Shown: piece by piece, positions 3 through 52,513 of the stretch
How the letters are laid out: every line of letters starts with the position of its first letter
How positions within the stretch are numbered: position 1 is the stretch's first letter
The notes under the pieces: model-generated
The model's database searches: none
The model's input: only the letters and a program-made list of their open reading frames with translations
Told to the model about the DNA's origin: nothing
Translations under genes and position numbers: made by a program
Assembly: GCA_019749895.1 (NCBI GenBank)
Contig: JAIEPG010000002.1
Coordinates: forward strand, 133,750 to 197,749
From: Candidatus Babeliales bacterium
Lineage (GTDB): Bacteria > Babelota > Babeliae > Babelales > RVW-14
Reading direction: 5' to 3'
Length of the DNA: 64,000 bases

Positions 3-3000
3 TCTGGCACTGGTAGCATAACTCTTGATACATCACAAGAAGTTATAGACAGCTTGAAAGAAGTAGAACAAACCGAAACTGAAAAAAAAATAGCAGAACT
101 TGAAGCCCCTACCGAATCAGAAACAGGAAAAGAATTAGCAAAAGAGCATAAAAATAAAGAAAAAAAGTCAGCAAAAAAAACAAAAACTAAAAGCAAAAAA
201 AATAGCTCCGTACAAGCACAAGATAAACGTCAAGATCTTGGTTGTTTTTTTAGTATTACCTGGGCACAAGACGATACATCAAACAACGTTATTAACTTTG
301 GCGATACCGTAACTATTTGGTCGCTATATGCTGTTGAGGGAAATCTTAAAAAAGCTGGCTCACTGAGCAAAGAATGGAAATGGTGGGTAAGCGACAGCCA
401 CTTCTTGTGGAAGCCTGATCAGCTTGATATTCGGGTGTCGTTGCTCAATCATCCACACGCTCAAGATGGCTGGCAAACATTTAAACTGATAAGTCCATAC
501 AATCAAACGGGCCCAATTCGTTCAAACGACACAATTATTATTCAAAGTATGGCCCCGCACGCTCAAGAACGTAACCTCTGGGTAAATCAATACAGCTGGG
601 TTAATGCCAAGGAACATTTTGAAATAATAGTTCCTGCTATCAATACAGGATCTTGGCAGCCAGATTTTTATGGCCAACAAGATCTTGGCGGCGCACAGTA
701 TTTTACACTGCAAGCAGTAAACTCAGAAGCCGATATCCCTGATACCGGTATTTCAATTAATACTAACGACTTCAAGAAAACCGCACGCGATATTTTTGGC
801 GCAATTAAGGGAACACAATTTTGGTATGATAAAAAATTAGCAACAGCATCAGCAGCAAAATCACTCGTTAAATCTGAGTTAACAGCAGGCCTTGGTGTTG
901 TAAAAGAAATACGCAACAATACGGACTATCTTTTGACAACCAATAAACTTGGCGTTATCAAAAAGCATGACGCACTACATAACCAACGCTATGAACTCCT
1001 TGAACGACTAACACTTGAAGGCTTTGCAAAAGAAGCACCAATTACTGATTTTGGACCAGATCGCATGATTACTCTGAACAAAATGTTTAGCAAAGGATTT
1101 GCTTGGCTTGATACACCACTTGAACAACCAGGACAAGCCACAATAACATTCCTTGCTCGCGCGACTGACCATGGTGGCATAGAAGTTGCGTTTAACACAC
1201 AAGGAGATACCCAAGCAAATTGGCAGATTATTATTGGCGGCCTCAACAATACAACTTCTCAAATACTGCTTAATGGCAAACTTATGGCAGAAGCACCACT
1301 TGTTCGTGCAATACCTGGCCGATTTATTCCCTACTGGGTTTCAGTTAATAACGGCTTAATCTTAGTTGGTGAAGGCACACCTGGCTATGGCGTCTTAATG
1401 TCTGCTTACATGCCTGAAGCTATGCAAGTCACTCACGTTGGCTTTGGTTCACACGATGGACCGGTTGATTACGCGGAAATTCAAGTTGGTAAAGCACTGC
1501 GCGTGATTGCAGAAAAAGAAATTTATACCAAGCTTGATCATGATCTTACCCTACCAGCTGGAAGCAACAATGTTACTTTTATCGACGATCTTAAAGTTCG
1601 TATTCCAAATGAAACAACTATTGCCTTTACCGCTCAAGCAAAACATTCAGTTGCAGTAGTCTTACAAAATCAAAAAGGAGACCGATACAAGGTCGTTATT
1701 GGCGCCAATAATAATAAATTCTTGGAAATTGAACGTAATGGTATTGTCGTACATCAACTACTTACTGAGTTACTCCCTACCGCACGCGTATACTCCGACA
1801 AACCTACTGATTTTTGGGTAAGCATTCTTGGCGGCATGCTTATGCTAGGCCAAGGGAAAATTGGTGACAACTTATTTATGGCATGGCAAGACCCCGAGAG
1901 CCTAGAAAACATTACACTAATTGGCTTTCAGCCTTCAGATCACGAACAAAAAATTAGCAATGTAGAAATTGCACCACCCGTTACCATTGACATAGAAAAA
2001 GGATCAAATATTCAACAACAACTCCAAGGTTTTCCTTACAAAGGCTCTATGACTCTTCATAGACCTTACCGCTATGATTTTATTCAAACAGGCCAATTTG
2101 TAACCATGAAAGATATGGTAAGTGGCAAAATTTTTAGCGTTTTAAGTACGCCACAACAACAAGCTGAATACCAATTTTTAATTGATATTGACGCTCAAGG
2201 GGCCCCCACCGTACAAATTATGCAACAACCAGCGGAAGCAAAAGCAAAAATATTACTCCAACAAGGAGCCTTTCTTAAAGAAATAGAAGCTAATAAAATA
2301 GCAAAAATAGGTGAAGCAACCGCAGGTATTTTTCAAGCCGGAAGCCAAATAGCTTTAATGGTTGCAGGTTCTGCGGCAATGTCTCCAGACCCTATTTCAA
2401 TGATTGTTGCAGGCGTTTCAGCAGGCGTTGGAATATCTACCGCAACAGCGGGCGCCGGCATAAAAGCTGCTGCTGAAATTAAAGCTGAAGGACTTAAGGA
2501 TGAAGCACAAAAAATGCGAGTTGACGCACAATATGGATTTCGCGCTCAAAATAGTTATGTTTATGTTGAAGAGCCAAAAACAGAACGTGGAGCTACAGAA
2601 TCAATCCCTATTGAAGCACAACAAAATGCTGCAGCAGTGGTAAAGCAACTCAGCGAAGCAGAGAAATTCGCCTTTCAGGACCCAAGCCACTATTCTGTAC
2701 TATTAAAAATTTATACCGATATTTTACGTAGTCTTACTCATCCATTTGTTATTAACAGCACAGCAGATACTAAGAAGAAGATTTTTTATGGACTGGAACA
2801 AATCAAAAAATATTACCCAAAAAACCCAGATAAACTGATTATCATTCTTGATGTATTTGTACGCGCTTACTTAAATTATTATCTTGTTGATGCACAAAAT
2901 AAGGACGATGTTAAAGCAAAAGACAGTTGGTACTTTACTATTGCAGACATTGGCAAAACATTATTAAATGCCTCAGCACAAGATGAAGATTTTGTATTTA

Positions 3001-3803
3001 CTATTCCTGCGCTTTATGGCGAATACATTTGGATCCCATGGCAACTAAAAACTCCAAATCTCGGCTGGATAATTTTTGAAGCCCGCGGACCAAGCGACAT
3101 TTTTATATGTTTCTCAGAAGATGCCGTAAGTGTACGTAATACCGACACAGAACTTTATGAAACTATTATTGGTGGATGGAACAACAGTAAACATGTAATT
3201 CGTACAAAAAGTCTTGGCCGTTCAGCAGCAGAAATTAAAACCACTCGTTCATCGCAACTTTCTTTGCGAGAATTTAAAACATATTGGGTTGGCCTTAACG
3301 ATGGCATGATCAGCCTGGGAACTGGCGAACAAGTTGGCAAAAATATTATTATGCAATGGCAGGATCCATATCCTTGGAAAACTATTAAATTTATTGGCAT
3401 TAGCACGTGGGACGTACCGATAGAGCTTAAAAATGTTTATACCATGGAAACACTAGAGAGCCTGAAAAAGCTATCAGAAAATTTGCCCGCTTCTCTCGCT
3501 CAACAACTACAACCCGCAAGCCCAGAGCAACTACAAAAAGAACAAGAAGCCTTGGCAAAATACAAACCTGCGAACATAACCGCCCCACAAGCAGTTGCTA
3601 CACACGGTGCCACAAAAACAACACAAGCCCAAGGCAGAGATACTCAACGGGCTTACTACCAAGCAGATGTTGCACAAACTGGCTATTTACGCCCAGTTGC
3701 TCCCCCAGGAATGATGGGCATGCCAGGAATGGGTTACCCTGGGGCTTACCCTCCAGGAACAGGCTATATTATGCCACCAAATCAACAACAACCTACTCGC
3801 TAA
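3..3803 (+). CDS. Large multidomain protein, 5'-partial (ORF open to the window edge). It has three FAMeT/Methyltransf_FA-like modules, a central bilobed hydrophobic segment and a P/G/M/Y-rich C-tail.
   Basis: The reading frame of the 54..3803 ORF has no stop codon back to base 3, so the real start is probably upstream of the window. The region is Lys-rich at the N-terminus. Three internally homologous ~115-aa modules lie at nt 1137-1490, 1614-1970 and 3063-3437. A Gly/Ala-rich hydrophobic pair lies at nt 2307-2474. The TAA stop is followed by a strong hairpin terminator. Confidence 0.85.
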   Translation, partial: SGTGSITLDTSQEVIDSLKEVEQTETEKKIAELEAPTESETGKELAKEHKNKEKKSAKKTKTKSKKNSSVQAQDKRQDLGCFFSITWAQDDTSNNVINFGDTVTIWSLYAVEGNLKKAGSLSKEWKWWVSDSHFLWKPDQLDIRVSLLNHPHAQDGWQTFKLISPYNQTGPIRSNDTIIIQSMAPHAQERNLWVNQYSWVNAKEHFEIIVPAINTGSWQPDFYGQQDLGGAQYFTLQAVNSEADIPDTGISINTNDFKKTARDIFGAIKGTQFWYDKKLATASAAKSLVKSELTAGLGVVKEIRNNTDYLLTTNKLGVIKKHDALHNQRYELLERLTLEGFAKEAPITDFGPDRMITLNKMFSKGFAWLDTPLEQPGQATITFLARATDHGGIEVAFNTQGDTQANWQIIIGGLNNTTSQILLNGKLMAEAPLVRAIPGRFIPYWVSVNNGLILVGEGTPGYGVLMSAYMPEAMQVTHVGFGSHDGPVDYAEIQVGKALRVIAEKEIYTKLDHDLTLPAGSNNVTFIDDLKVRIPNETTIAFTAQAKHSVAVVLQNQKGDRYKVVIGANNNKFLEIERNGIVVHQLLTELLPTARVYSDKPTDFWVSILGGMLMLGQGKIGDNLFMAWQDPESLENITLIGFQPSDHEQKISNVEIAPPVTIDIEKGSNIQQQLQGFPYKGSMTLHRPYRYDFIQTGQFVTMKDMVSGKIFSVLSTPQQQAEYQFLIDIDAQGAPTVQIMQQPAEAKAKILLQQGAFLKEIEANKIAKIGEATAGIFQAGSQIALMVAGSAAMSPDPISMIVAGVSAGVGISTATAGAGIKAAAEIKAEGLKDEAQKMRVDAQYGFRAQNSYVYVEEPKTERGATESIPIEAQQNAAAVVKQLSEAEKFAFQDPSHYSVLLKIYTDILRSLTHPFVINSTADTKKKIFYGLEQIKKYYPKNPDKLIIILDVFVRAYLNYYLVDAQNKDDVKAKDSWYFTIADIGKTLLNASAQDEDFVFTIPALYGEYIWIPWQLKTPNLGWIIFEARGPSDIFICFSEDAVSVRNTDTELYETIIGGWNNSKHVIRTKSLGRSAAEIKTTRSSQLSLREFKTYWVGLNDGMISLGTGEQVGKNIIMQWQDPYPWKTIKFIGISTWDVPIELKNVYTMETLESLKKLSENLPASLAQQLQPASPEQLQKEQEALAKYKPANITAPQAVATHGATKTTQAQGRDTQRAYYQADVAQTGYLRPVAPPGMMGMPGMGYPGAYPPGTGYIMPPNQQQPTR

Positions 3804-3827
3804 TACTTTGCTATAATTATTCGCATT

Positions 3828-3859
3828 AAAAAAGGCCCCGAAGATTCGGGGCCTTTTTT
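3828..3859. terminator. Bidirectional rho-independent terminator between the convergent giant ORF and gyrB
   Basis: The element reads A6 - GGCCCCG - aagatt - CGGGGCC - T6. It is a perfect 7-bp GC-rich stem flanked by an A-run and a T-run, and it sits exactly between two convergent stop codons (3803 and 3874). Confidence 0.75.
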
Positions 3860-3873
3860 AAAATAGAATCGTT

Positions 3874-6351
<2,478 letters not shown>

Positions 6352-6468
6352 TCAAAAAGAAGCTTTAATTTTGAAAGAAATTTTTTGTATTATTAAAACA
6401 CAGGCACTAGTATAGCACCATTAAGAGTATCTATCAAAATTTGAAAACAAAAAGATGCGTTAAGTACT

Positions 6469-6945
6469 ATGAAAACAGAAAAAAAGACCTTTTTTATGAA
6501 CGAGGCCCTCAAACAAGCTCAAAAAGCTTTAGACAACCAAGAAGTACCCATCGGCGCTATAATTGTGGGACCCGACAATACTATTATTGCACGTGCCTAT
6601 AATAAGATTGAAATGATGCAGTCTCAAACAGCACACGCAGAGATCTTAGCTATCCAGAAAGCTTATAAAAAGGTTGGCAATTGGAGGTTGAACGGATGTT
6701 GGATCTATGTTACCCTTGAGCCTTGTTTAATGTGCCTGGGCTTAATTAAACTGAGTAGGCTAAAGGGAATAGTATTTGGAGCAAAATCAACCTTGTTCGG
6801 CATAGGGCTTGATGAAATAGAAAATCATATACCGTTTTACATTCAGAATTTAAGCATTGAGGGCGGGGTGGAACATGAAGCAAGTCTTTCCCTCTTAAAA
6901 TTGTTTTTCAAAAAGATTAGAAAAAAAGAGAAAGGGCAGCCATGA
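6469..6945 (+). CDS. tadA: tRNA-specific adenosine deaminase (CMP/dCMP deaminase fold)
   Basis: Zinc motifs HAE(ILAI) and PCLMC are present. The protein is 158 aa, typical of TadA in size and layout. Confidence 0.85.
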   Translation: MKTEKKTFFMNEALKQAQKALDNQEVPIGAIIVGPDNTIIARAYNKIEMMQSQTAHAEILAIQKAYKKVGNWRLNGCWIYVTLEPCLMCLGLIKLSRLKGIVFGAKSTLFGIGLDEIENHIPFYIQNLSIEGGVEHEASLSLLKLFFKKIRKKEKGQP

Positions 6946-7286
6946 AACAACGAACAGATGCGCTTCATAGAATTAAGGATAGACTTCTACAAAGAAAAGT
7001 AGAAATGACTATGCTTCTTTCTTCGTCAACAAATGAAAAGTTTGCCGACGATCAAATTCAAGATAGTGGCGATGAGGCACTTTCTCTTACCATGGAAAAC
7101 CTCAAAAACTCACTTGAACAAAATGAAATTGATGAATTACGCTTGATAGATAACGCACTTATGCGCATAGATCGCGGAGAATATGGCTCATGCCTTGACT
7201 GCGAAGAGCATATTTCAGAACGACGCTTAGAAAATTTTCCGTATGCTGCTCGTTGCATTGTTTGCCAAGAAGCTCTTGAAGGATAA
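6942..7286 (+). CDS. DksA/TraR-family C4 zinc-finger protein
   Basis: The C-terminus carries CLDC-x17-CIVC after a coiled-coil-like N-region. The start overlaps the tadA stop by 4 nt (ATGA). Confidence 0.75.
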   Translation: MKQRTDALHRIKDRLLQRKVEMTMLLSSSTNEKFADDQIQDSGDEALSLTMENLKNSLEQNEIDELRLIDNALMRIDRGEYGSCLDCEEHISERRLENFPYAARCIVCQEALEG

Positions 7287-7338
7287 GTTTTTTCAGGATA
7301 GAATACACTAAGAATTACCTAGTAAAACCTGAAGAAAT

Positions 7339-7413
7339 GCCGATGTAGCTCAGTGGTAGAGCAACTGATTCGTAATCAGTAGGCCGTCGGTTCAACTCCG
7401 ATCATCGGCTCCA
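7339..7413 (+). tRNA. tRNA-Thr (anticodon CGT)
   Basis: Manual cloverleaf: acceptor GCCGATG/CATCGGC, D-arm GCTC..GAGC, anticodon stem ACTGA/TCAGT with loop TTCGTAA, T-loop TTCAACT, encoded CCA. Confidence 0.9.
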
Positions 7414-7568
7414 GTATTTTCTAGCTGAAATTCTACTTGTTTGTTTTTTAATGATTTTTGTCATTTTTGCTCCTTTTTGACAAAATGAGCTTTTATGACT
7501 ACTCTATTGTATTAATTAGCACAGTTTTAGTTATAACTTTAGTCCTTTTAGCTTAGGTTTACGGATTT

Positions 7569-7979
7569 ATGAAAGACGCTCAAAAAAGCAAAACTAGCTC
7601 TTCCATTCATGGTGTTGGACGAAGAAAAAAAGCTGTTGCACGTGTTTGGCTGAGCAAAGGCAGCGGAACAATTACCGTCAACGGTTTAAATCATGAAGAA
7701 TATTTCGATACGTTGATCAATCGCAGTAGCCTTTCCATTCCATTCAAAGTTGCTAATCAAAAAGGCTTTGATGCAAAGGTTAGTGTTAACGGCGGCGGCA
7801 TGAAAGGCCAAGCAGATGCTATTCGTCTTGGGATTGCGCGAGCACTTCTTGAGTCTGATGAAACATTAAGAGCTACATTGCGTAAAAACGATCTCCTTAC
7901 CGTTGACTCTCGCGTTAAAGAACGTAAAAAATACGGTCAACGTGGCGCACGCAGAAAGTTCCAATTCGTCAAAAGATAA
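7569..7979 (+). CDS. rpsI: 30S ribosomal protein S9
   Basis: GVGRRKKAVARVWL, GGGMKGQADAIRLGIARAL and the C-terminal RRKFQFVKR are typical of uS9. Confidence 0.95.
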   Translation: MKDAQKSKTSSSIHGVGRRKKAVARVWLSKGSGTITVNGLNHEEYFDTLINRSSLSIPFKVANQKGFDAKVSVNGGGMKGQADAIRLGIARALLESDETLRATLRKNDLLTVDSRVKERKKYGQRGARRKFQFVKR

Positions 7980-8097
7980 TCTTTCTGGCTTTACCATTCA
8001 TTTACTGCTAAGGTACCACTTAGTGGATCCTTATCTTTGTGCAGCATCATAAAAGGTAATAAGAAATGTTATTATTAACGCAATTGACTAAAATATC

Positions 8098-9987
8098 ATG
8101 TGTGGCATAGTTTCGTACGTCGGCAATAAGTCTTGCCGGCAATTTATTCTTGATGGCTTAACACGACTTGAATACAGAGGCTATGACTCCGCTGGAATTA
8201 TTTGTATTGATAGCAAACATAAGCATTTTAGCTATCAAAAAGAAGCCGGCGGTATTTCTCTGCTTAAAAAATTAGTAAAAACTACTAAGTTTGATGGTTT
8301 CATTGGCATGGGGCACACGCGCTGGGCAACGCATGGCGTTGTTGATAAAGCAAATGCACACCCACACTTCAACTGTCATAAAAGCGTCGCCGTTATCCAC
8401 AATGGTATTGTTGAAGGGTACGAAAAAATTCGTGAAGAGCTTATTAAAGAAAACCACGAGTTTTATTCAACAACCGATACCGAAGTCATTGCTCACTTAT
8501 TCAGTTCACTTTTAACTAAGCACAAAAATATTATTCCAGCAGTTTTAGAACTTACGCAAAAGCTCCATGGAGCTTTTGCGCTTGTCATTATGATGGAAGA
8601 ATATCCAGATCAGCTCTTATTAATCAGAAGACGCTCACCATTGGTTATTGGCATTGGACAAGATGAAATGTTTGCAGCTTCTGACTACATGGCTTTTTCA
8701 GATCAAACAAAAACGGTACTTTTCTTGCCAGACAATAGCTTTGCGCTTGTAAAAAAAGACGCTCTTGCGCTCTATGATTTTACTGGAAACACCGTTACAG
8801 CCCAAACGCAAACAATCGACCAAACATTCAGCTCGACAGACAAGCAGGGCTTTGAACATTACATGCTCAAAGAAATCTACGAACAAAAGCGGGCGATTAA
8901 TAGAACCATTTCTTTTTTTAAGATTATTGGCAATAACACTGAATCCAATTCCTTTTCCTCCAAAGAAGAATATAACGAAGGCATTTGGCGCCAACTAGGC
9001 CTTACCGCAGATCAGGTTAAAAACTTAAAATCTTTAAACCTCATTGCTGCAGGCACTTCATGGCATGCTGCACGCATTGCTCAGTTCTTTTTTGAAATAA
9101 TTTGTAAAATTCCAACGCGAGTTTCTTTGGCATCAGAATTTCAACATATGCCATTTTTTCCTGATGCAAACAGTGTTTATATATTAATTTCTCAATCTGG
9201 AGAAACTGCAGACACACTGCAAGCGCTACGTTTAATTACAACCGCTAGTTTACAAACTATTGCTCTTACCAACGTTGCCTCAAGTACCATTGTACGCGAA
9301 GCTGATGGCTTTATGCCTATGCAAGCAGGACCAGAAATTTCAGTTGCTTCAACAAAAGCGTTTTCTACTCAAGTCGCCTCACTTTATTGGCTTGCCAACC
9401 GCATAGCACTTGAGCGAGGCATAATTAGCCAAGGAGAAATGCACGAAGCAGAAGAAGATCTCTTCATAACCGCTGAAATTTTAGAAACGGTTATAGAAAC
9501 CTACAAATTGACTATCTCCCAAACATTGGCTCAAAAATATAGCACGTACAACCGCTTTATTTTTCTTGGCCGCCATATTAGCTATCCCTTTGCTTTAGAA
9601 GCTTCGCTTAAACTCAAAGAGATTTCTTATATCTTTTCGCAATGCTATCCAGCTGGCGAGCTTAAGCACGGCCCCATTGCATTAATCGACGACCAAACAC
9701 CTGTCGTTATTTTTTCAGTACTCGACGAGATAATTTACTGGAAAATTTTGGCAAACGCACAAGAAGTTAAAGCGCGCCACGGCCACTTGATTGTGTTTGC
9801 ATTTGAAGGACAAAAAGAACTGATCAACCTTGCAGACACAGCTTTTATTATCCCTCTGGTCAAACCACTTCTTGCCCCTCTTGCCATGACTGGCATTATG
9901 CAATATTTTGTTTACGAAATTACACGAGCTCTTGACCGACCCATTGACAAGCCCAGAAACCTGGCAAAATCAGTTACTGTTGAGTAA
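8098..9987 (+). CDS. glmS: Glutamine--fructose-6-phosphate aminotransferase
   Basis: N-terminal MCGIV (Ntn nucleophile Cys2), a GATase-2 domain, two SIS domains and the C-terminal VTVE. Confidence 0.95.
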   Translation: MCGIVSYVGNKSCRQFILDGLTRLEYRGYDSAGIICIDSKHKHFSYQKEAGGISLLKKLVKTTKFDGFIGMGHTRWATHGVVDKANAHPHFNCHKSVAVIHNGIVEGYEKIREELIKENHEFYSTTDTEVIAHLFSSLLTKHKNIIPAVLELTQKLHGAFALVIMMEEYPDQLLLIRRRSPLVIGIGQDEMFAASDYMAFSDQTKTVLFLPDNSFALVKKDALALYDFTGNTVTAQTQTIDQTFSSTDKQGFEHYMLKEIYEQKRAINRTISFFKIIGNNTESNSFSSKEEYNEGIWRQLGLTADQVKNLKSLNLIAAGTSWHAARIAQFFFEIICKIPTRVSLASEFQHMPFFPDANSVYILISQSGETADTLQALRLITTASLQTIALTNVASSTIVREADGFMPMQAGPEISVASTKAFSTQVASLYWLANRIALERGIISQGEMHEAEEDLFITAEILETVIETYKLTISQTLAQKYSTYNRFIFLGRHISYPFALEASLKLKEISYIFSQCYPAGELKHGPIALIDDQTPVVIFSVLDEIIYWKILANAQEVKARHGHLIVFAFEGQKELINLADTAFIIPLVKPLLAPLAMTGIMQYFVYEITRALDRPIDKPRNLAKSVTVE

Positions 9988-10061
9988 TGTGGTTTATCAG
10001 CAATCGCACAAAAGCGATTGTTCTCGAGCAGTCAGTTGTTCATTAAATTAAAGGACTTGTC

Positions 10062-11492
10062 ATGAATCTTGCTTATTTTATTTCATTTTTTTTGTACTTT
10101 GCAATTTTGCTCGTCGTTGGCATTCTTTTTTACAACAGACAAAAAGATGCCGGTGACTTTATGGTTGGCAGCCGGTCACTTAATTACTGGGTAACCGCCA
10201 TTGCCACACACGCAACCGACATGAGCACCTGGCTCTTTATGGCCTACCCAGGCTTAGTTTACCGCGAAGGAATGCCAGGTTGTTTAATTGCTATTGCCCT
10301 TACACTAGGTATGCATTTTACGTGGAAATATATTGCACCACAATTGCGTATTGCAACCGAAAAAACCAACAGTCCAACGCTCATCAGTTATTTTGAAAAA
10401 CGATTTAACGATCCCGCTGGCCATATCAGACTGCTCGGCGCTGTTATTTCGCTCGTTTTTTTCACACTTTATATTTCTGCAGGTATTGTAGGCCTTGGCC
10501 GCGCGGTAGAAGCAGCGTTTGCCGTTAATTACCACATTGCTATTTCGATTGGCACCCTGGGCATTGTTGCCTACACCCTGCTGGGCGGCTTTATTGCAAT
10601 TGCCTGGAACGACTTTATTCAAGGTATGTTTGTACTCTTCATTTTGCTTTTTGTGCCAATTTATGCTTGCTGGTTTTTAGGCGGACCTTCTACTATTATT
10701 AATGCTTTAGTCAGTAAAAATATTGCACTCACACCATTTCCAGATTTTTCATGGCACAGTTTTTTGAAAAATGTTGTACCTGCTGTAGGCTGGGGACTTG
10801 GTTATTTTGGGATGCCACATATTTTAGTTAATTTTATGGGCATTGATAACGTAAAAAATATTAAAAAAGCACACACCCTTGGTATTATGTGGCAAATATT
10901 AACTACCATTTTTTCGGCAACACTTATTGGCTTAATTGGTATTATATTTTTTGCACAAACAGGCTTGGCTGACAGCGAACTAGTATTTGTAGGTATGGCG
11001 CAACAAATGTTCCCACCATACTTATCTGGATTTATTTTGTGCGGTATTTTGGCAGCAGCAATCACAACTATGGACTCACAAATTCTTGTTGCAGCTTCCA
11101 CCATTGCTCAAGATGTTTATCGCAAGTTTTTCAATCAAAAAGTCTCGTCACACAATCTCATGCAAATTTCTCGTCTTGGCGGGCTTGGCATAACATTTAT
11201 TGCATTTTTGTTTGCATTCAATAACCACGATTCAATTTTAGATCTGGTGTATCACGCATGGTCTGGCTTGGGTGGTTCGTTTGGCCCACTCCTACTTGCT
11301 TCATTTTATTGGAAATCAACCATCACCAAACACGGTGCTTTTACCGGTATTTTAGTTGGCGGGTTGGTTGCTGGCAGCTGGCGTTACCTAGAAACAGGCT
11401 TTAACGCACCTCTTATTCCCGCATTTATTTTGAGCTTTTTAAGTATTTATGTTGTTTCAAGAATGACTGAAAAAGTCGGTAACAACGCTTAA
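10062..11492 (+). CDS. Sodium:solute symporter family transporter (PutP/PanF-like)
   Basis: The 476-aa protein is hydrophobic throughout, with about 12-13 TM segments and an SSF-like pattern (N-terminal FxxYxxxLxxVG, GSRSLN, multiple GG/GxxxG helices). Substrate is not assignable. Its 3' end overlaps the radA 3' end by 4 nt. Confidence 0.75.
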   Translation: MNLAYFISFFLYFAILLVVGILFYNRQKDAGDFMVGSRSLNYWVTAIATHATDMSTWLFMAYPGLVYREGMPGCLIAIALTLGMHFTWKYIAPQLRIATEKTNSPTLISYFEKRFNDPAGHIRLLGAVISLVFFTLYISAGIVGLGRAVEAAFAVNYHIAISIGTLGIVAYTLLGGFIAIAWNDFIQGMFVLFILLFVPIYACWFLGGPSTIINALVSKNIALTPFPDFSWHSFLKNVVPAVGWGLGYFGMPHILVNFMGIDNVKNIKKAHTLGIMWQILTTIFSATLIGLIGIIFFAQTGLADSELVFVGMAQQMFPPYLSGFILCGILAAAITTMDSQILVAASTIAQDVYRKFFNQKVSSHNLMQISRLGGLGITFIAFLFAFNNHDSILDLVYHAWSGLGGSFGPLLLASFYWKSTITKHGAFTGILVGGLVAGSWRYLETGFNAPLIPAFILSFLSIYVVSRMTEKVGNNA

Positions 11493-12859
11493 GAATCTTC
11501 CGGAAATAACTGTAACAATTCGTAAACATTTTTAAAAGTCACCAGATTGCAAGAACTGGTGACTTTTTGATTTTTAGCCACAAAAACATGTTCCAAACCA
11601 AATTTTTCAACCTCTTTTATGCACGCAGAAACTTGATTTGCAGGCTTAACTTGCCCCGTCAAACTTAACTCTGCAATAGCCACAGAATGGCCTGGGAGCG
11701 GTTTTTGAAAATAACTTGAAAGCAGCGCAAGCGCTATCCCGAGATCGCTGGAGCTTTCTTTAATTTTAAAGCCCCCACTCACTTTAAAAAAGATATCTTG
11801 GCTGCTAAATTTTATATGCAAATATTTTTCAAGAATAGCAGCAATCAGCACTACACGCTTTTGATCAAGACCGGTTACCACACGCTGCGGCATCCCAAAC
11901 TTTGAACTAACAACTAACGCTTGTAACTCAAGCACCAAGGGACGCGAACCCTCAACACTACATACTAAAACTGAACCAGGGGTACTAGAACTTTCAGAAA
12001 TAAGCTGCTGATTGATATTGGTAACTTCTGCCAAGCCATGCTCTTCCATTTGAAAGAAACCAACTTCATTAATAGCACCAAAACGGTTTTTAACCGAACG
12101 TAAAACGCGCGTTTGCCAACGATCTTCAGCATTCAAGTAAAAAACCGCATCCACAATATGCTCTAAAACCTTGGGACCTGCCATCTGACCTTCTTTGGTC
12201 ACATGACCGGTAACCAACACAGCAACATTGTTTTCTTTGGCAAATTTCATAAGCCTAAAACCAACCTCACGCAACTGGGCAACAGTACCGGGAATAACAT
12301 GAGAATCAAATGAAAGATGACAGTTTTGAATTGAGTCTAAAATAAGTAAATCTGGTTTATGCTCCAAACCAGTAGCAATAATACTTTCTAAATCTGGCTG
12401 ATCAGAAAAGAGTAAATTTGTGGTGCCCACACCAAGTCTACTGGCTCTATTTTTTACTTGGTGCAAGGCCTCTTCAGAAGAAATATAAATAACTTTGTGG
12501 CGCTGCGCAATGCGATTGGCTACCTGCATTAAGAGCGTAGATTTTCCAATGCCTGGGTCGCCCGTCAAAATAATAAACGAGCCTGGCAACACACCACCAC
12601 CAAGCACCCGGTCCCACTCTTGCATACCAGAACACATGCGCTCTTGCGCTTCATCTTCAATTTGGCTCAAATTTACCAAACTAGTGGGCTTGGCCGCAAC
12701 AACACGAGCTCCTTTTGCCAACGACCCGCTCGAAATAGCCGAAATTTGCCGCTCAATGAAACTGTTCCATTCGCTGCACCCAGGACAACACCCAACCCAT
12801 TTTACGCTTACATAATGGCAATTGGTACATGAATACGTTAATTTTTGCTTAACTGCCAA
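11489..12859 (-). CDS. radA: DNA repair protein RadA/Sms
   Basis: N-terminal C4 zinc finger (CTNC...CPGC), Walker A GDPGIGKST, the KNRFG motif and a Lon-protease-like C-domain. Confidence 0.95.
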   Translation of the reverse strand: MAVKQKLTYSCTNCHYVSVKWVGCCPGCSEWNSFIERQISAISSGSLAKGARVVAAKPTSLVNLSQIEDEAQERMCSGMQEWDRVLGGGVLPGSFIILTGDPGIGKSTLLMQVANRIAQRHKVIYISSEEALHQVKNRASRLGVGTTNLLFSDQPDLESIIATGLEHKPDLLILDSIQNCHLSFDSHVIPGTVAQLREVGFRLMKFAKENNVAVLVTGHVTKEGQMAGPKVLEHIVDAVFYLNAEDRWQTRVLRSVKNRFGAINEVGFFQMEEHGLAEVTNINQQLISESSSTPGSVLVCSVEGSRPLVLELQALVVSSKFGMPQRVVTGLDQKRVVLIAAILEKYLHIKFSSQDIFFKVSGGFKIKESSSDLGIALALLSSYFQKPLPGHSVAIAELSLTGQVKPANQVSACIKEVEKFGLEHVFVAKNQKVTSSCNLVTFKNVYELLQLFPEDS

Positions 12860-12867
12860 GAATATTC

Positions 12868-13509
12868 CTAATTAGTTATTTGAGTTGCGGAATATTTTTT
12901 GCGATAAACAGGGAACTTATCAATTTCAAAACAATTTCTGCACCGGGCTTCATAGCATTCTTCTGCACCAACCAAAATAATTGGATCTTCATACCGCGCA
13001 GACTTACCATTAACTATTCGCTGCGTATGATAAGCATCGCGCCCGCATTTAACACAAATCGCTTTGAGCTTGGTTACTTCATCGGCAACGGCCATGAGCA
13101 AGGGCGTTATGCCAAAAGGTTCACCACGAAAGTCAAGATCAAGGCCGGCAACAATTACACGCTTACCTTTATCAATAAGCTTACAAATAACATCAATAAC
13201 TTCATTGGGGAAAAATTGAATCTCATCAAAACCAACAACATCAACAGCATCACTAGCCAAATCCAAAATCTTTTCAACACCAGAGTCAATGGGAAAAGCA
13301 AGGCGCTCGCGGCCGTCATGAGAAACAATACATGATTCATTTTTGCGCGTATCTATTGAATGTTTAATCACCAAAACCGACTGCTTGGCAAATTCTGCAC
13401 GCTTTAAGCGGCGCATGAGTTCTTCAGTTTTTCCTGAAAACATTGAGCCACAAACAACTTCCAATCTGCCTTTTTTATTATTGTTATGCAACATACGCCG
13501 GTTCTCCAT
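12868..13509 (-). CDS. tdk: Thymidine kinase
   Basis: P-loop GSMFSGKTEEL and C-terminal zinc-binding cysteines (CVKCG ... CRNC). The start could instead be the internal Met 5 codons downstream. Confidence 0.9.
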   Translation of the reverse strand: MENRRMLHNNNKKGRLEVVCGSMFSGKTEELMRRLKRAEFAKQSVLVIKHSIDTRKNESCIVSHDGRERLAFPIDSGVEKILDLASDAVDVVGFDEIQFFPNEVIDVICKLIDKGKRVIVAGLDLDFRGEPFGITPLLMAVADEVTKLKAICVKCGRDAYHTQRIVNGKSARYEDPIILVGAEECYEARCRNCFEIDKFPVYRKKYSATQITN

Positions 13510-13626
13510 TCGTTACAAAATTTAAGTTTTTTTCATTCACAACCAGAGTATAGCAAGCTTTAGGATCAACAAAAAGAAACTGGTTGGACATTATCTACAA
13601 ACGTCCAACCAGGTATAAAAACTTCT

Positions 13627-15489
13627 CTAGCATTTTGTTTCAGTATCTGTTGGCAATGGCGCCATCTTCTTCAAAGCCCATTCCATACCATTTAAGGTTT
13701 TGTGCCAAGCTGTCCCAACCATGTTCCTAAACCATGATGATTTTTGTGCTGGTGCAGTAGCTTTAGTTGTCAGATTTTCCGACGATATTTGTTGCTGAGA
13801 AATCTCCCTCACCAGAGAAGGGCGAGATGATGACAAGGACGAGTTGACTGAAGACGATGTGGCAACCGCTACCCTTTGATCTGTTAAATTTTGGGAACTA
13901 GGCGATGAATTGGCACTTGAATTACTGCCATATTGGGGCAATAACGGTGCAGTTGTTGTTTGACCACTGTTCACACGTTGAGAACTTGACGATTGCTGAG
14001 TAACCACGACCTCAGTAGGTGGTTGCGTCACGGTAACTACCTGCGCTGTCTGCGTAGACGGTGGCGTCTCACGCGTCGACTGTGTTGGTACTGGTACCAA
14101 CGGTGTTGTTTGCGCTGGAATTACCCCTTTCTTCACCACAGGTAGCGCCCGAGCTATAAGCTTTTGTGGCCAATTAAGTGGGTTTAATGACGAACCTTGA
14201 TCAGCTCTGCGTTTATATTCCTCAAAAGTTTCAACTCTATCCGCAAGATTTTTCAACTTGGTTACCTTCTCATTAAGCCCGACTTTTTCATCAAGCTGAT
14301 CGATTAAGCTACTTGCTAAACCTTGACGCGCCGAGCCAGGCTTAGCTTTTGGCTTGGCAACAACAGTTTGCTTGTTTCCAGTATCAGAAGGCCTACTTTT
14401 TGGTTGCTCTGTCGTTGATGGCACCACAGGCTCATTTGATTTATTTTCGACAGGAGCTGGGGATGACAACAAAGAATCTCTACCCGTTTGCGAAATTGGC
14501 TCGGCTTCTTCTACTTGAGCCCCATTAACAAGAACACCAATATCATTAATTGCTCTATCAATAACCTCATCAACCTTATCAGACATTTTTTTTGCAGCTT
14601 CTTCAACTTTTTTGTTGCTCATAAAGCGCTCTGTAATAACATCACTTACTGACTCAACAGCTGTCTTCCACACATCATTAATGTGACCCTTAATTGCTTT
14701 AACACCAACTTTATTAACGTAATAGCCAATAACACTAGCAACTACCACTACCACAGAACCAATAAGTAGCCACTTTGTTATATTGCGTGCCTCAACCAAC
14801 GGCTCTTGTAATGCATACACTTGCACACCAGAAATAAAATCAGCAATAACTCTGTCGTCAAGCCCATTAGTCTGCAAAACATTGTTAATATCGCGCAATT
14901 CTTTCTTAATTTTTTCAAGATAATATACTAACGCCTCTTTCTTTTGGTCGTATCTCAACTCGCTATATGAAATAATAAAAATAAAAATAATAGCTTTAGT
15001 TAAAGTAGCCCGAAACGGCTTAATTACTTGATCATCAAAAGCAACTTCATGGCTATGAAGACGCGAAAAACCATCCCATAAAGAACCTTGGTACTTTTTA
15101 GGTGTTTCCATTTTGCAGAGTAGTTTATGAAATTGTAAGCAAAAAAACTTGCTCATGCGCTTGAGTAAAAATGCGCTATCAAAATCACTTTGTTGTTGGA
15201 GCCATTCAACCAAACAGAGCAATGTAGCACCATTTTCAGTAAAATGATCATCTATGATTGGATCAATAATAAGATTATTATTATAATAATTGCCAAAGTG
15301 ACCTTTTTTTACCAATTCATAATAAACATCTTCAAAGGATGCTTGAGCTTGATGATGTTTTTCTTTAAAATCAAGAATCATTTCTGAAGAAACGCGATAT
15401 TCGGCAAACCCAAATGGCGTAAAAATTGTAGTAATCAATCCAACTAACAAAAACAAACAAACATTGCTTGTTCTATTTTTAGTATTCAT
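13627..15489 (-). CDS. Hypothetical membrane-anchored protein with a long S/T/P/Q-rich tail
   Basis: The 620-aa ORF has an N-terminal signal/anchor (NVCLFLLVGLITTIFTPFGFA) and a second TM segment (WLLIGSVVVVVASVIGYYV). The C-terminal ~300 aa are low-complexity Ser/Thr/Pro/Gln. I recognised no family motif. Confidence 0.6.
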   Translation of the reverse strand: MNTKNRTSNVCLFLLVGLITTIFTPFGFAEYRVSSEMILDFKEKHHQAQASFEDVYYELVKKGHFGNYYNNNLIIDPIIDDHFTENGATLLCLVEWLQQQSDFDSAFLLKRMSKFFCLQFHKLLCKMETPKKYQGSLWDGFSRLHSHEVAFDDQVIKPFRATLTKAIIFIFIISYSELRYDQKKEALVYYLEKIKKELRDINNVLQTNGLDDRVIADFISGVQVYALQEPLVEARNITKWLLIGSVVVVVASVIGYYVNKVGVKAIKGHINDVWKTAVESVSDVITERFMSNKKVEEAAKKMSDKVDEVIDRAINDIGVLVNGAQVEEAEPISQTGRDSLLSSPAPVENKSNEPVVPSTTEQPKSRPSDTGNKQTVVAKPKAKPGSARQGLASSLIDQLDEKVGLNEKVTKLKNLADRVETFEEYKRRADQGSSLNPLNWPQKLIARALPVVKKGVIPAQTTPLVPVPTQSTRETPPSTQTAQVVTVTQPPTEVVVTQQSSSSQRVNSGQTTTAPLLPQYGSNSSANSSPSSQNLTDQRVAVATSSSVNSSLSSSRPSLVREISQQQISSENLTTKATAPAQKSSWFRNMVGTAWHKTLNGMEWALKKMAPLPTDTETKC

Positions 15490-20120: not shown

Positions 20121-20205
20121 GGGGAGGTTCCCGAGCGGTCAAAGGGGACGGACTGTAAATCCGTTGGCGACGCCTTCACAGGTTCGAATCCTGTTCTCCC
20201 CACCA
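20121..20205 (+). tRNA. tRNA-Tyr (anticodon GTA), long variable arm
   Basis: Acceptor GGGGAGG/TCTCCCC, anticodon stem ACGGA/TCCGT with loop CTGTAAA, a long extra arm, T-loop TTCGAAT, encoded CCA. Confidence 0.9.
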
Positions 20206-20229
20206 TAATAATTAGAGCGCGGATAATGC

Positions 20230-20306
20230 GCGGGAATAGCTCAATTGGCTAGAGCGACAGCCTTCCAAGCTGTAGGTTGCGGGTTCGAGCCCCGTTTCCC
20301 GCTCCA
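20230..20306 (+). tRNA. tRNA-Gly (anticodon TCC)
   Basis: Acceptor GCGGGAA/TTCCCGC, anticodon stem ACAGC/GCTGT with loop CTTCCAA, T-loop TTCGAGC, encoded CCA. Confidence 0.9.
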
Positions 20307-20318
20307 GAAGAGAATTTT

Positions 20319-20394
20319 GCTGGCATAGCTCAGTTGGTAGAGCAGCTGATTTGTAATCAGCAGGTCACTGGTTCAAGTCCAGTTGCCAGCTCCA
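20319..20394 (+). tRNA. tRNA-Thr (anticodon TGT)
   Basis: Acceptor GCTGGCA/TGCCAGC, anticodon stem GCTGA/TCAGC with loop TTTGTAA, T-loop TTCAAGT, encoded CCA. Confidence 0.9.
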
Positions 20395-20537
20395 TTTTTT
20401 ATAACATTTTGCCCATTATGTGATGCAATTTGTAAAATTTGTGAAAAAACGAAAGTTAAGGTAAGCTAACAATAAGCTGAATTAACATACACAGCCCACT
20501 GAAATAAAGATCGATTAAAGTAATACGAGAGACAAAC

Positions 20538-20613
20538 GCCCACGTAGCTCAGTTGGTAGAGCACTTCCTTGGTAAGGGAGAGGTCACCGGTTCAATCCCG
20601 GTCGCGGGCTCCA
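20538..20613 (+). tRNA. tRNA-Thr (anticodon GGT)
   Basis: Acceptor GCCCACG/CGCGGGC (one A-C mismatch at pair 5), anticodon stem CTTCC/GGGAG with loop TTGGTAA, T-loop TTCAATC, encoded CCA. Confidence 0.85.
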
Positions 20614-20652
20614 GTTCACAAACCTCACGCTAGTTTTGATGAAAGTTCGACT

Positions 20653-20811
20653 ATGGCTAAAAATAGAATAATAATGCATCTTGAATGCAAAGATTGTAAC
20701 CTTAGAAATTATAGTAAAAAAGTTTCTAAGAAGCGAGCTTTCGGCAAGTTGGCATTGAACAAGTATTGTTCAACATGCAAAAAGCATTCAACACATAAAG
20801 AAACTAAGTAG
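20653..20811 (+). CDS. rpmG: 50S ribosomal protein L33 (Cys4 zinc-binding form)
   Basis: MAKNRIIMHLECKDCNLRNY...CSTCKKHSTHKETK. The track ORF start at 20569 runs across the tRNA-Thr, so I used the ATG at 20653 instead. Confidence 0.9.
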   Translation: MAKNRIIMHLECKDCNLRNYSKKVSKKRAFGKLALNKYCSTCKKHSTHKETK

Positions 20812-20817
20812 ATCTGT

Positions 20818-20893
20818 AGGTCAGTAGCTCCAATGGTAGAGCAGCGGACTCCAAATCCGCGTGTTGGGGGTTCGAATCCCTCCTGACCTGCCA
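20818..20893 (+). tRNA. tRNA-Trp (anticodon CCA)
   Basis: Acceptor AGGTCAG/CTGACCT, anticodon stem GCGGA/TCCGC with loop CTCCAAA, T-loop TTCGAAT, encoded CCA. Confidence 0.9.
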
Positions 20894-24172: not shown

Positions 24173-28495
<4,323 letters not shown>

Positions 28496-28499
28496 TAGA

Positions 28500-31400
28500 A
28501 TGCTTGAACGATTTCGTGAATACATCAATACAACACAGTTTAATGCGATCAGAATAGGCATTGCTTCACCAGAAAAGATTCGCTCTCTTTCGTATGGTGA
28601 AGTAAAAAAGATTGAAACCATTAACTATCGTACGCTTAAACCTGAACGTGATGGTTTATTTTGCGCTCGCATTTTTGGTCCAGTAAAAGACTGGGAATGT
28701 AATTGCGGTAAATATAAGCGCATGAAACATCGTGGTGTTACCTGTGAAAAATGTGGTGTTGAAGTTATTCAATCACGTGTACGTCGTGAACGGATGGGAC
28801 ATATCAATCTTGTTTCTCCTGTTTGCCATATTTGGTTTTTAAAGGGTATTCCAAGCTATTTAAGCTTGATTATAGGCATGACTGTTCGTGACCTTGAACG
28901 TATTATCTATTTTGATAGTTACATAGTTATCAATCAAGGTAACTCTCCATATCCTCAAAAAACGCTGCTCAACAGCCAAGAATATGAAGAATATGTCAGT
29001 TCACATGCCGAAGATATCACCTTTAATGCAGGTATGGGCGCAGAAGCAATCAGAACACTGCTCACCGGCATTGACCTGAACTTTGAAGTCAGAAAAATAG
29101 AAGAAGAATATAAAAAAACAACATCGATTGCCGTTAAGCATAGACTTGCAAAACGTTACAAAGTTCTTTACAGCATGCTTCAAGCAACTATTCGTCCAGA
29201 ATGGGTTTGTTTTGAGGTGCTGCCAGTAATTCCACCAGATTTACGTCCTCTTGTTCCTCTTGAAGGCGGACGCTTTGCCAGCTCAGACTTGAACGATCTT
29301 TATCGACGTGTTTTAAATAGAAACATTCGTCTCAGAAGACTTATTGAACTTGAAGCTCCAGACGTTATTATCAAAAACGAAAAACGTATGCTTCAAGAAT
29401 CAGTTGATGCGTTGATAGACAACGGTCGTAGAGGCCAACCAGTAAGAGGTTCAAACCGTCGCCCTCTTAAATCATTAAGCGAAATGCTTCGTGGTAAGCA
29501 AGGTCGATTCCGTCAAAACTTGCTCGGTAAGCGCGTAGACTATTCAGGTCGTTCTGTTATTGTGGTAGAACCAGAACTTGAAATGCATCAATGCGGATTA
29601 CCAAAATTAATGGCACTTGAACTCTTTAAACCTTATGTTTATGTTGAGTTGCAAAAGCGAGAACTCGCTACAAACTTACGCGTTGCAAAACGCATGGTTG
29701 AAGAAATGACTGCTGAAGTCTGGGAAGCATTGGAAGAAGTTGTTAAAGACCGCGCAGTACTATTAAACCGTGCTCCAACATTGCATCGTTTGGGTATTCA
29801 AGCCTTCTATCCAATTTTAGTAGAAGGTAAATCTATTAAGATTCATCCACTCGTTTGCGCAGCATTTAACGCCGACTTTGACGGTGACCAAATGGCAGTG
29901 CACGTACCGTTGAGCAAAAAAGCTCGAACAGAGGCAGTTAATCTTATGCTTTCTGTTAACAACTTGCTTTCCCCTGCAAACGGACGCCCACTTTCTACAC
30001 CAACCAAAGACATGGTACTTGGCCTGTACTACATGACCAAAGGACGCAAAAATGTATCTGGTGAAGGCTTAGTTTTCTCAAGTATTCATGAGGTTATTTA
30101 CGCTTACCAACATGAACAAGTCAGTATTCATGCACCAATTAAAGTACGTTTAAAAAACAACATTCTTGTTGAAACAACGGTTGGTCGCGTTATTGTATAC
30201 GAAGCACTTCCTGAAGGATCTGACTTCAACTGGGTAAATAAAGCAGTTAAGAAAAAAGATCTTGGAACATTGGTTGCTTCGCTCCATAAGTATTTTGGTA
30301 GCCATGCAACAGTTAAGACATTAGATAAAATTAAAAAACTTGGTTTTTCGTATGCTACATTTGGCGGCGTTTCATTGTCTATTGATAACTTAATTATTCC
30401 TGATGAAAAACAAAGCATCCTTAACGACAGCAAAAAACAAGTAGAAAAAGCTGAGCAACTTTATGTTGACGGTATTATTACCAACGGTGAACGTCTCAAT
30501 AAAATTATTCAAATTTGGGCGCGTGCCACTGAAGACGTAGCTAACAAAATGTTAAATGTTCTTGAGAAAGAAGATCGTGCAGCAGCTACTAACACCGACA
30601 AAAACAATAAGCCTTTCAACTCAGTCTTTTTGATGCTTGATTCAGGAGCTCGTGGTTCTAAACAACAAATTCAACAGCTGGCCGGTATGCGAGGACTAAT
30701 GGCTCGACCATCTGGTGAAATTATGGAAACACCGGTTTTGGCAAACTTTAAAGAAGGCTTAAGTGTATTTGAATACTTCGTATCAACACACGGGGCTCGT
30801 AAAGGTTTGGCAGATACAGCTCTTAAAACAGCTGACTCTGGTTATTTAACTCGTCGACTTGTTGACGTTGCACAAGATATGGTAATTACTCAGGCAGATT
30901 GTCAAACTCTTGGTTATATTGGCTTATGTGATATTGCTGAATCAGGTGAAATTATAGAATCTATTGGCAAACGAGCATATGGTCGTATTGCTGCAGAAGA
31001 TATAAAGGATCCATTCACCGGAAAACTAATCGCAACCCAAGACTCATTACTTACTGAAAGCATTGTTGAACAAATCAACGATTCAGCTGTGAACAAAATA
31101 AATGTTCGATCAGCATTAACGTGTCAAGCAAAACGTGGCATGTGTGCTAAGTGCTATGGTATGGATCTTTCAACCCAAAGATTGGTTGATATCGGTACAG
31201 CTGTAGGTATTCTTGCTGCACAGTCAATTGGTGAACCAGGTACACAGCTTACCATGAGAACTTTCCACATCGGGGGTACAGCAAGCGGTCTGGTAGAACA
31301 ATACCACTACAAGGCTCGTTTTGACGGTAAAGTTGCTTATCGCGATGTTCACGCAGTAAAAAATCGTGATGGTTTGTGGACAGTAATGAATCGTAAATCA

Positions 31401-45900: not shown

Positions 45901-45926
45901 CGTAGTCTAAAAGAGGATATTTGGCT

Positions 45927-47231: not shown

Positions 47232-47248
47232 AAAGGAAGTAATTCCAC

Positions 47249-51966: not shown

Positions 51967-52502
51967 TGGAATTTTTTACTCATTTTACCAATTTTATTGC
52001 CCACCTAGCGCCCAAGCAGCTCAAAAAATATCTATTGGGCGTTTTGCTCATTGTTGGCTTGCTAACCATTTCACTTAAATATTTTATTTACACCAAAAGT
52101 CACGATCTGGTTACACGCATTAAACGACTTGAAAAGCTTGATGGCAAAATAAGCGACATGCAAGATAAATACGAAATGTTGCTGGGGGAAGAAGAGCGCA
52201 TTCAAGGGCTTTTAAACAAACACAAAGATTTTAATATTAAAAGTTACTTTGAAGCTTTTTATAAAGAACAACATATCTCGCCAGAAGCGGGATGGGACAC
52301 CGACGTACGTTCAATTAATGAAAAATTTGATGAAATTGCATTGTCAGCAACGTTTAAAGATCAAACAACAGAAAAATTAGTAAAAATCCTTGAAGAAATC
52401 GAAAAAAAAGAAATACTGTCAGTGAAAAGCTTGAACGTTAAAACCGATAAAGATAAAAAAATTAGTTTCGATATAGTAATTGCCACGATTAAAGCTAAGT
52501 AA
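51963..52502 (+). CDS. PilO/GspM-like bitopic membrane protein
   Basis: The 179-aa protein has an N-terminal TM helix (LLGVLLIVGLLTISLKYFIY), a coiled-coil segment and a small C-terminal alpha/beta domain. The call rests on position and architecture only. The start overlaps the upstream stop by 4 nt. Confidence 0.5.
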   Translation: MMEFFTHFTNFIAHLAPKQLKKYLLGVLLIVGLLTISLKYFIYTKSHDLVTRIKRLEKLDGKISDMQDKYEMLLGEEERIQGLLNKHKDFNIKSYFEAFYKEQHISPEAGWDTDVRSINEKFDEIALSATFKDQTTEKLVKILEEIEKKEILSVKSLNVKTDKDKKISFDIVIATIKAK

Positions 52503-52513
52503 GGAAACGGCCA

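Follow-up and report, generated by a model that had tools for sequence, protein, structure and literature searches.

We analyzed a 64,000-nucleotide stretch of DNA from a Candidatus Babeliales bacterium (assembly GCA_019749895.1, contig JAIEPG010000002.1, positions 133,750 to 197,749; hereafter the window), which opens inside a gene for a very large protein with three copies of the domain named after farnesoic-acid O-methyltransferase (FAMeT; Methyltransf_FA, PF12248). On the + strand, positions 3-3803 form an uninterrupted frame of 1,266 codons that ends in a TAA stop at 3801-3803. Its translation is 100% identical to residues 510-1775, the last 1,266 of the 1,775 amino acids (aa) of a protein from a 387-kb contig, here called P0001. 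The gene extends beyond the 5' end of the window, which holds the 3' 71% of it, and it is the downstream ('B') copy of a tandem pair. An earlier, sequence-only reading of the window had described a giant protein truncated at its 5' end, and the match to P0001 supplied the full length. The true N-terminus, which that reading had proposed to look for upstream, was recovered in P0001 and carries a signal peptide; the concern that the frame might be interrupted upstream proved unfounded, as P0001 is full-length and intact. We also ruled out a pseudogene or an artefact, given the unbroken frame and the presence, in other Babeliales genomes, of close relatives that are about as long. The closest relatives of P0001 (61-74% identity) are hypothetical proteins from Candidatus Babeliales metagenome-assembled genomes and from a 1.45-Mb complete genome labelled 'bacterium'.

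From the N- to the C-terminus, P0001 comprises a signal peptide, a Lys-rich linker, a Tectonin-like propeller, a Trp-rich duplication, FAMeT modules 1 and 2, a small beta domain, a helical hairpin, a helical bundle, FAMeT module 3 and a disordered tail. The first 509 residues lie outside the window and consist of a signal-peptide-like start (MKPNRIYQMVNFVLILSLLLTTHSIIFA/TD), a Lys/Asp/Glu-rich linker and the Tectonin-like region. All features of the protein that are located below by window position are on the + strand.

The three FAMeT-like modules lie at about 1098-1472, 1572-1937 and 3069-3425 (the boundaries are envelope coordinates of the PF12248 matches and thus approximate). They scored 43.8 bits (E=2.8e-11), 51.2 bits (E=1.4e-13) and 75.2 bits (E=5.7e-21) in Pfam, where the gathering score is 24.2, so that the assignment to PF12248 made in the earlier reading was borne out for all three. 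Module 3 is the nearest of the three to the Pfam model, and the whole protein reached 156 bits (E=6.7e-46). Pairwise identity among the modules is 26-28% with 23 invariant columns, a similarity far beyond chance, and their alignment contains invariant I-G..N-N, W-V, G...G.G and P columns. The ordered motifs IGG.xN, [FY]W[VI]S...G.I.[VL]G.G and W.DP are present in P0001 and nearly invariant across 30 family members. All six peptides on which the earlier reading had based its three repeats were found within the ranges that it gave (1221-1271 and 1329-1451; 1686-1736 and 1809-1931; 3156-3206 and 3279-3410), and each also falls within one of the PF12248 envelopes.

The folds of the modules were predicted with two AlphaFold2 (AF2) models, each built on a shallow alignment of 7 sequences, and compared with known structures using Foldseek. 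The beta-rich region at about 890-2225 was modelled with a predicted local distance difference test score (pLDDT) of mostly 70-90. Modules 1 and 2 superposed on tandem-repeat galectins (galectin-9, 3wv6; galectin-8, 4han; a Toxascaris galectin) and on laminin LG4-5 pairs, with E about 1e-7 and a probability of 1.0, and module 3 matched the N-domain of galectin-8 (E=1.7e-3, probability 1.0). From a viral structure library, phage receptor-binding modules of the concanavalin A (ConA) and LamG types were the only matches. The beta-sandwich proposed in the earlier reading thus has a predicted counterpart in a galectin/LamG/ConA-like jelly roll.

Given this predicted concanavalin-A-like sandwich, the name 'methyltransferase' is misleading for PF12248 here. 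It is very improbable that P0001 is a genuine farnesoic-acid or other small-molecule O-methyltransferase: apart from the family name PF12248 and the historical FAMeT annotation in crustaceans, nothing favours that reading. We rejected it because the fold is wrong (the predicted sandwich is not a fold that binds S-adenosylmethionine), because the signal peptide would place the protein outside the cytoplasm, where S-adenosylmethionine is unavailable, because FAMeT activity is itself doubtful, never having been reliably shown and with hormone levels normal in a fly mutant (PMC10015273), and because the same domain occurs in extracellular thioester and alpha2-macroglobulin proteins of animals, to go by the titles of the reports.

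The earlier reading had described the module as mainly eukaryotic, and the distribution of matches agrees with this: arthropod FAMeT proteins carry it (PMC10015273), and repeat proteins from Lingula and from EukProt were among the matches to our query. The matches that consisted of many short stretches were eukaryotic proteins with FAMeT repeats only. For instance, a protein of the brachiopod Lingula anatina (P0071, XP_013402294.1, 3,814 aa) matched in 14 separate stretches and appears to contain many PF12248-like repeats, and a giant eukaryotic protein from EukProt (P0151, 7,735 aa) matched the query in 5 stretches. Animal and protist proteins remote from the biology of juvenile hormone use PF12248 as a repeated unit.

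Between modules 2 and 3 lies a helical region that the sequence-only reading had missed. A long helical hairpin (2226-2549; AF2 helices at residues 86-131 and 136-183 of model B, pLDDT 40-67) is followed by a family-specific helical bundle (2550-3005; pLDDT 80-93), whose hidden Markov model matched 126 of the 161 retrieved proteins. The tip of the hairpin (2322-2462), AGIFQAGSQIALMVAGSAAM-SPDP-ISMIVAGVSAGVGISTATAGAGI, is two-lobed, uncharged, hydrophobic and rich in Gly and Ala; its Kyte-Doolittle hydropathy over 19 residues, 1.59, is borderline. Across 95 members the tip is kept as a feature and not as a sequence. The 110 residues before the bundle contain a run without charged residues whose median length is 29 aa, versus 13 in control windows from the same proteins, and in 68% of the members 5% or fewer of the control windows match the length of the run. 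Gly, Ala, Ser and Thr make up 62% of the run, versus 28.6% in the background.

For hairpin and bundle, neither the fold nor the profile comparison with the PDB gave a significant relative, and nor did the viral structure library. When the helical region was compared with alpha-helical pore-formers (ClyA/Hbl/XaxAB, colicin, Cry domain I), no fold match in the PDB reached E<=0.001 other than those of galectin type, and the profile search returned nothing significant. BoNT/NTNH and Cry1 were considered as a possible family and rejected: they appeared in Foldseek with probabilities of 0.6-0.82, but with TM-scores of 0.07-0.17 and no significant E-value.

The Trp-rich domain (219-755; P0001 aa 582-760) contains 10 Trp in 179 aa and is internally duplicated, with repeat 1 at 219-491 and repeat 2 at 447-713. 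In a profile self-comparison with hhalign, its residues 1-91 aligned with residues 77-165 at a probability of 95% (E=3.5e-8). This duplication explains the two D-T-[VI]-[TI]-I-[WQ]-S motifs that had been noticed before (303-323 and 528-548), which fall into the same alignment columns. The beta-trefoil that had been guessed from them would call for a three-fold repeat of ~45 aa and gave way to a two-fold repeat of ~85 aa. The domain is the most conserved part of the protein, with 93% identity between paralogues versus 66% overall, and it was found in about 27 of the retrieved family members. None of 16 diverse copies matched Pfam, the profile of these 16 sequences matched nothing in the PDB, and the AF2 model (7 sequences) was not folded (pLDDT below 50). 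A link to Fascin or MIR domains was dropped, as the sub-threshold Fascin match of one relative (P0029) does not overlap its match to the Trp-rich domain. To call the domain lectin-like is a guess.

The remaining segments of the window protein are linkers and smaller domains. A low-complexity linker rich in Lys, Glu and Thr (6-218; P0001 aa 511-581), recognized by its composition, lies between the Tectonin-like propeller and the Trp-rich domain, and the paralogues are just 25% identical there. A linker and beta-rich segment precedes module 1 (756-1097; AF2 strands from model residue 228 onwards, pLDDT 72-90), and a small, family-conserved beta domain follows module 2 (1956-2225; AF2 strands, pLDDT about 55-84). 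The protein ends in a disordered tail rich in Ala, Gln, Pro, Gly and Met (3456-3800; the last part of the model has a pLDDT below 50), the last residues of which are PPGMMGMPGMGYPGAYPPGTGYIMPPNQQQPTR. A scan of the window protein against NCBIfam returned noise only.

To the N-terminal side of the window protein, P0001 aa ~200-510 form the Tectonin-like region, which was invisible in the window. Residues 223-325 matched the lectin Tectonin 2 (5fsb) with E=3.8e-5 over two sets of propeller blades. P0001 has no match to the Pfam Tectonin model (PF19193, threshold 30 bits) at E<=0.1; the model was matched above its threshold in two relatives, P0005 (42.8 bits; 63-64% identity to P0001) and P0007. 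Counting the Tectonin-like propeller and the three ConA/galectin-like sandwiches, P0001 has at least four modules of predicted lectin fold. Tectonin-family lectins bind O-methylated sugars (PMC5238581) and, according to the title of another report, bacterial lipopolysaccharide (PMC2707011). In one metagenomic contig (L006, JGI 3300021091, positions 8813-13972), a separate 512-aa Tectonin gene stands directly 5' of a 1,201-aa member that consists of the core only. Three genes resembling rRNA or other S-adenosylmethionine-dependent methyltransferases lie between this pair and a further member of 1,528 aa; the contig has two members within 10 kb.

To delimit the family, we searched 1.84 billion cluster representatives exhaustively with HMMER, taking window residues 75-1170 as the query. 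The search retrieved 735 proteins at E<=1e-3 and 138 at E<=1e-30; judged by these matches, the family is large, with at least 138 clusters. Word-index searches for homologues gave 7, 2 and 2 matches, probably because low-complexity words saturated the candidate lists, and a scan of species genomes with two very narrow peptide patterns gave 2 loci. Because many relatives align with query residues ~260-1075 in one stretch, we define a core of ~820 aa that runs from the beta segment before the FAMeT modules to module 3. The family-wide core starts at about position 1000, distant relatives aligning from query residue ~260.

PF12248 was matched in all of 30 diverse relatives (30/30), and a signal-peptide-like start is present in nearly all full-length members. 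The heads vary. According to Pfam, 19 of the 30 members have Tectonin, two have MIR, and Fascin, TECPR and a ConA domain resembling 3-keto-disaccharide hydrolase occur once each; the order of the domains also differs between clades. The C-terminal tails are between 0 and 680 aa long, some acidic, others Lys-rich or Ala/Pro-rich, and we ruled out a conserved sorting signal in the tail on account of these differences in length and composition. The named members come from Candidatus Babeliales, Candidatus Dependentiae or an unclassified 'bacterium', so that the restriction of the family to Dependentiae rests on few named members. Our literature search found nothing that links PF12248 or farnesoic acid to Dependentiae, and no paper that describes the family. 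PF12248 and Tectonin are known domains; for the architecture of the ~820-aa core, for the helical bundle and for the Trp-rich domain, we know of no described relative.

Judged by the gene order in related genomes, the gene is the second of two adjacent paralogues, the first of which would lie upstream of the window, where the sequence-only reading could not see it. In a sister Babeliales genome (L001) and in the complete genome CP064957 (L004), the order is uvrB, HhH-GPD glycosylase, paralogue A (1,700-1,795 aa), paralogue B (1,644-1,702 aa), gyrB on the opposite strand, tadA, dksA and rpsI. The same arrangement with gyrB is found in L001, L004 and a third genome (L005). By synteny with L001 and L004, we infer that P0003, a protein with 66-68% identity to P0001, is the upstream A copy in the genome of the window; P0003 is recorded on a contig as long as that of P0001 (387,128 bp), presumably the same one. 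In a neighbour-joining tree, the upstream copies (P0003, P0004 and P0006) are set apart from the downstream copies (P0001, P0002 and P0005), and the A/B duplication therefore predates these genomes. Tree and gene order together make the window gene the downstream member of a tandem pair that arose early and lost neither copy.

In at least three genomes the A/B pair keeps one order and one gene neighbourhood, and the much more divergent genome of P0007 (L005; 35% identity) likewise has two copies in tandem close to gyrB-tadA-dksA. In all, copies stand side by side in five contexts or more. A and B diverge most in the hairpin (51% identity), which is 80-85% identical within each group of orthologues. 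Directly 5' of the tandem pair in L005 (SRR31089950, positions 3249-5192) lies a gene for a 647-aa ankyrin-repeat protein; proteins of this kind are suspected to be the effectors with which Dependentiae manipulate their hosts (PMC6561590). Two adjacent family copies are also found in L003 (CAYSDC010000037.1, positions 40-8514), each broken into two or three open reading frames (ORFs) by what may be frameshifts, pseudogenes or assembly errors.

The pairing and the hairpin together raise the possibility that A and B form a two-component, lectin-guided, alpha-helical complex that inserts into or perforates membranes. In such a complex, the lectin modules would dock on glycans of the host vacuole or plasma membrane, and the Gly/Ala-rich hairpins of A and B would then insert jointly and breach the membrane, for entry, escape from the food vacuole or lysis. 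The family-wide retention of an uncharged hairpin tip rich in small residues would suit this scheme, as would its marginal hydrophobicity, which would permit passage through Sec followed by conditional insertion. The divergence of the hairpin between A and B with conservation within each orthologue group, the recurrence of adjacent pairs and weak Foldseek echoes of BoNT/NTNH (probability 0.82) and Cry1 (0.6-0.77) point the same way. However, no pore-former was matched significantly by structure or by sequence (TM-scores 0.07-0.17), the hairpin model is of low confidence, and some members are single or consist of the core only. We consider this scheme quite unlikely. Its boldest form, in which the A/B pair would be a new class of lectin-guided two-component helical membrane-insertion machine, the FAMeT domain a glycan- or lipid-binding module and the Trp-rich duplication a new lectin fold, is a somewhat longer shot still. 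If it were true, Dependentiae would dock on glycans of the food vacuole or the plasma membrane and then breach the membrane.

The surroundings of the gene are conserved and consist of housekeeping genes. Downstream of the ORF follow the convergent gyrB (3874-6351, -; Pfam DNA_gyraseB, Toprim and HATPase_c), which we treat as a synteny anchor and not as a functional part of the system, and then tadA, dksA, tRNA-Thr, rpsI, glmS and a sodium:solute symporter gene. No terminator-like or promoter-like site was detected in the 70-bp gap between the ORF and gyrB (3804-3873).

This stable place, between uvrB/HhH-GPD and gyrB/tadA/dksA/rpsI/glmS, is among the observations that could favour a structural role in the cell envelope. 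P0001 would then be a periplasmic protein, or one tethered to the inner membrane by the hairpin as a stop-transfer pair, and its modules would bind the peptidoglycan or lipopolysaccharide of the bacterium itself and organize a degenerate envelope. Wide conservation of the core across the lineage is compatible with such a role. So are the strong purifying, rather than diversifying, selection on the Trp-rich domain, the typical transmembrane hydrophobicity of the second lobe of the hairpin in several members, and the lipopolysaccharide binding of tectonins that the title of PMC2707011 announces. On the other hand, clades have exchanged heads (Tectonin, MIR, Fascin and TECPR, in differing order) and the tails are highly variable, as is typical of host-interaction proteins; the modules are mainly of eukaryotic type, and there are multiple paralogues per genome. 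We consider an envelope role unlikely.

The signal-peptide-like N-terminus of P0001 is of Sec type, and a cluster resembling type II secretion and type IV pilus systems is present in the same window (45921-55024, +). It comprises a GspC-like gene (45921-47231), a first GspD secretin (47249-50269), a PilM/GspL-like gene (50266-51966), a small ORF with no Pfam match (51963-52502) and a second GspD secretin (52514-55024), all on the + strand. This gene set matches the type II system with two gspD copies that was reported, together with Sec and a degenerate outer membrane, from all TM6 genomes (PMC4776705). In Chromulinavorax destructans, 44% of the proteins have signal peptides, and effectors are believed to leave the cell via Sec (PMC6561590). 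Neither Pfam nor the AF2 model gave P0001 a C-terminal autotransporter beta-barrel; its C-terminus is a FAMeT sandwich followed by the disordered tail. The segment at 46-50 kb of the type II cluster has an unusually high AT skew (0.20-0.30).

Elsewhere in the window, whose GC content is 0.35-0.45, five tRNA genes (Tyr, Gly, Thr-TGT, Thr-GGT and Trp) lie at 20121-20893 (+). Two ORFs of 1,440 and 1,374 aa at 24173-32612 (+) are, by size and position, probably rpoB and rpoC. The GC skew changes sign near 20 kb and 36 kb. Three further ORFs had no Pfam match at E<=0.001 and may be lineage-specific (13627-15489, -, 620 aa; 38969-40315, -, 448 aa; 62079-63863, +, 594 aa).

Babeliales belong to the Dependentiae (TM6), a widespread phylum of obligate protist parasites, a lifestyle for which the adhesin or effector role suggested in the sequence-only reading is reasonable. 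The explanation that we prefer, and to which we would give an even chance, is that P0001 is an exported protein that binds host glycans and carries a membrane-inserting or anchoring hairpin. It would cross the inner membrane via Sec and then, probably, leave through the degenerate outer membrane with the help of the type II system whose genes lie in the window. Outside the cell, several lectin-type modules would bind glycans of the protist host surface or of the luminal face of the food vacuole and thereby provide multivalent attachment; the PF12248 modules would act as binding modules and not as methyltransferases. The marginally hydrophobic hairpin would anchor the protein in a membrane or insert into the host membrane after binding.

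Several observations weigh against this explanation. To our knowledge, there is no experiment or ligand on record for any member of PF12248. The hairpin has a pLDDT of 40-67 and a borderline Kyte-Doolittle hydropathy (1.3-1.9), which leaves membrane insertion and the target membrane speculative. Export across the outer membrane is suggested solely by type II genes 42 kb away, and the Trp-rich domain, although the most conserved part, resembles no recognised fold or function in sequence comparisons. Also compatible with a structural role in the envelope is the location of the gene, which is surrounded by housekeeping genes of deeply conserved order. Finally, one relative comes from a metagenome-assembled genome labelled Pseudomonadota (L003); the label ('uncultured Pseudomonadota'; local GC 0.33-0.40) may be a binning or classification error.

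Few isolates of Dependentiae exist, and we know of no host-attachment or entry factor from this group. The family described here is large, exported, retained in tandem in the genomes checked and built of lectin modules, and thus offers a concrete candidate for attachment or entry. What the FAMeT domain does has been questioned ever since it was described from crustaceans, and a bacterial, extracytoplasmic protein with three copies of PF12248 and a galectin-like predicted fold would add evidence that FAMeT domains serve in binding rather than in catalysis. The Trp-rich domain and the helical bundle, which have no recognisable relatives, are good targets for structure determination.

We group the family with other large, exported proteins that host-dependent bacteria build from lectin modules. 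As the parts that are understood best have familiar folds and the proposed function is an inference, we do not regard it as a wholly new category. The chlamydial Pmp autotransporters are likewise paralogous large proteins with signal peptides, encoded in a reduced genome of a host-dependent bacterium and presumed to act in attachment; their domain content is entirely different, and P0001 has no autotransporter barrel. The lack of a barrel translocator also separates it from type V autotransporter adhesins in general. Two-component alpha-pore-formers of the XaxAB/YaxAB type are encoded by adjacent genes, to which the two adjacent paralogous genes here may be likened. With BoNT/NTNH and Cry1, P0001 shares a logic, that of long helices with a hydrophobic hairpin beside lectin-like sandwiches, but no sequence relation, and it is without protease or other catalytic domains.

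Closer parallels exist for the individual modules. Galectin-8 and galectin-9 and the laminin-G/LNS pairs have the same predicted fold and the same two-domain arrangement, and by analogy the FAMeT modules may be ligand-binding sandwiches; identity to galectins is 8-13%, with no match to Pfam galectin (PF00337) or LamG and no galectin sugar-binding signature recognised. Arthropod FAMeT and other eukaryotic PF12248 proteins (CPAMD8, thioester-containing proteins, Lingula) have the same module of ~130 aa. In P0001 as in arthropod FAMeT, the module is prone to tandem arrangement and stands beside lectin-type partners, the arthropod partner being DM9/DUF3421 (PMC10015273). Whereas the arthropod-type architecture has one to four PF12248 domains with DUF3421/DM9 and no signal peptide, P0001 has a signal-peptide-like N-terminus and no DUF3421 match; it is bacterial, exported and about six times longer. 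The eukaryotic PF12248 proteins in our match list are without the hairpin and bundle core and align through their repeated FAMeT stretches only. Tectonin 2 of Laccaria (5fsb) and the Physarum tectonins are free-standing, whereas in P0001 the Tectonin-like propeller forms one of the head modules of a giant protein with many domains.

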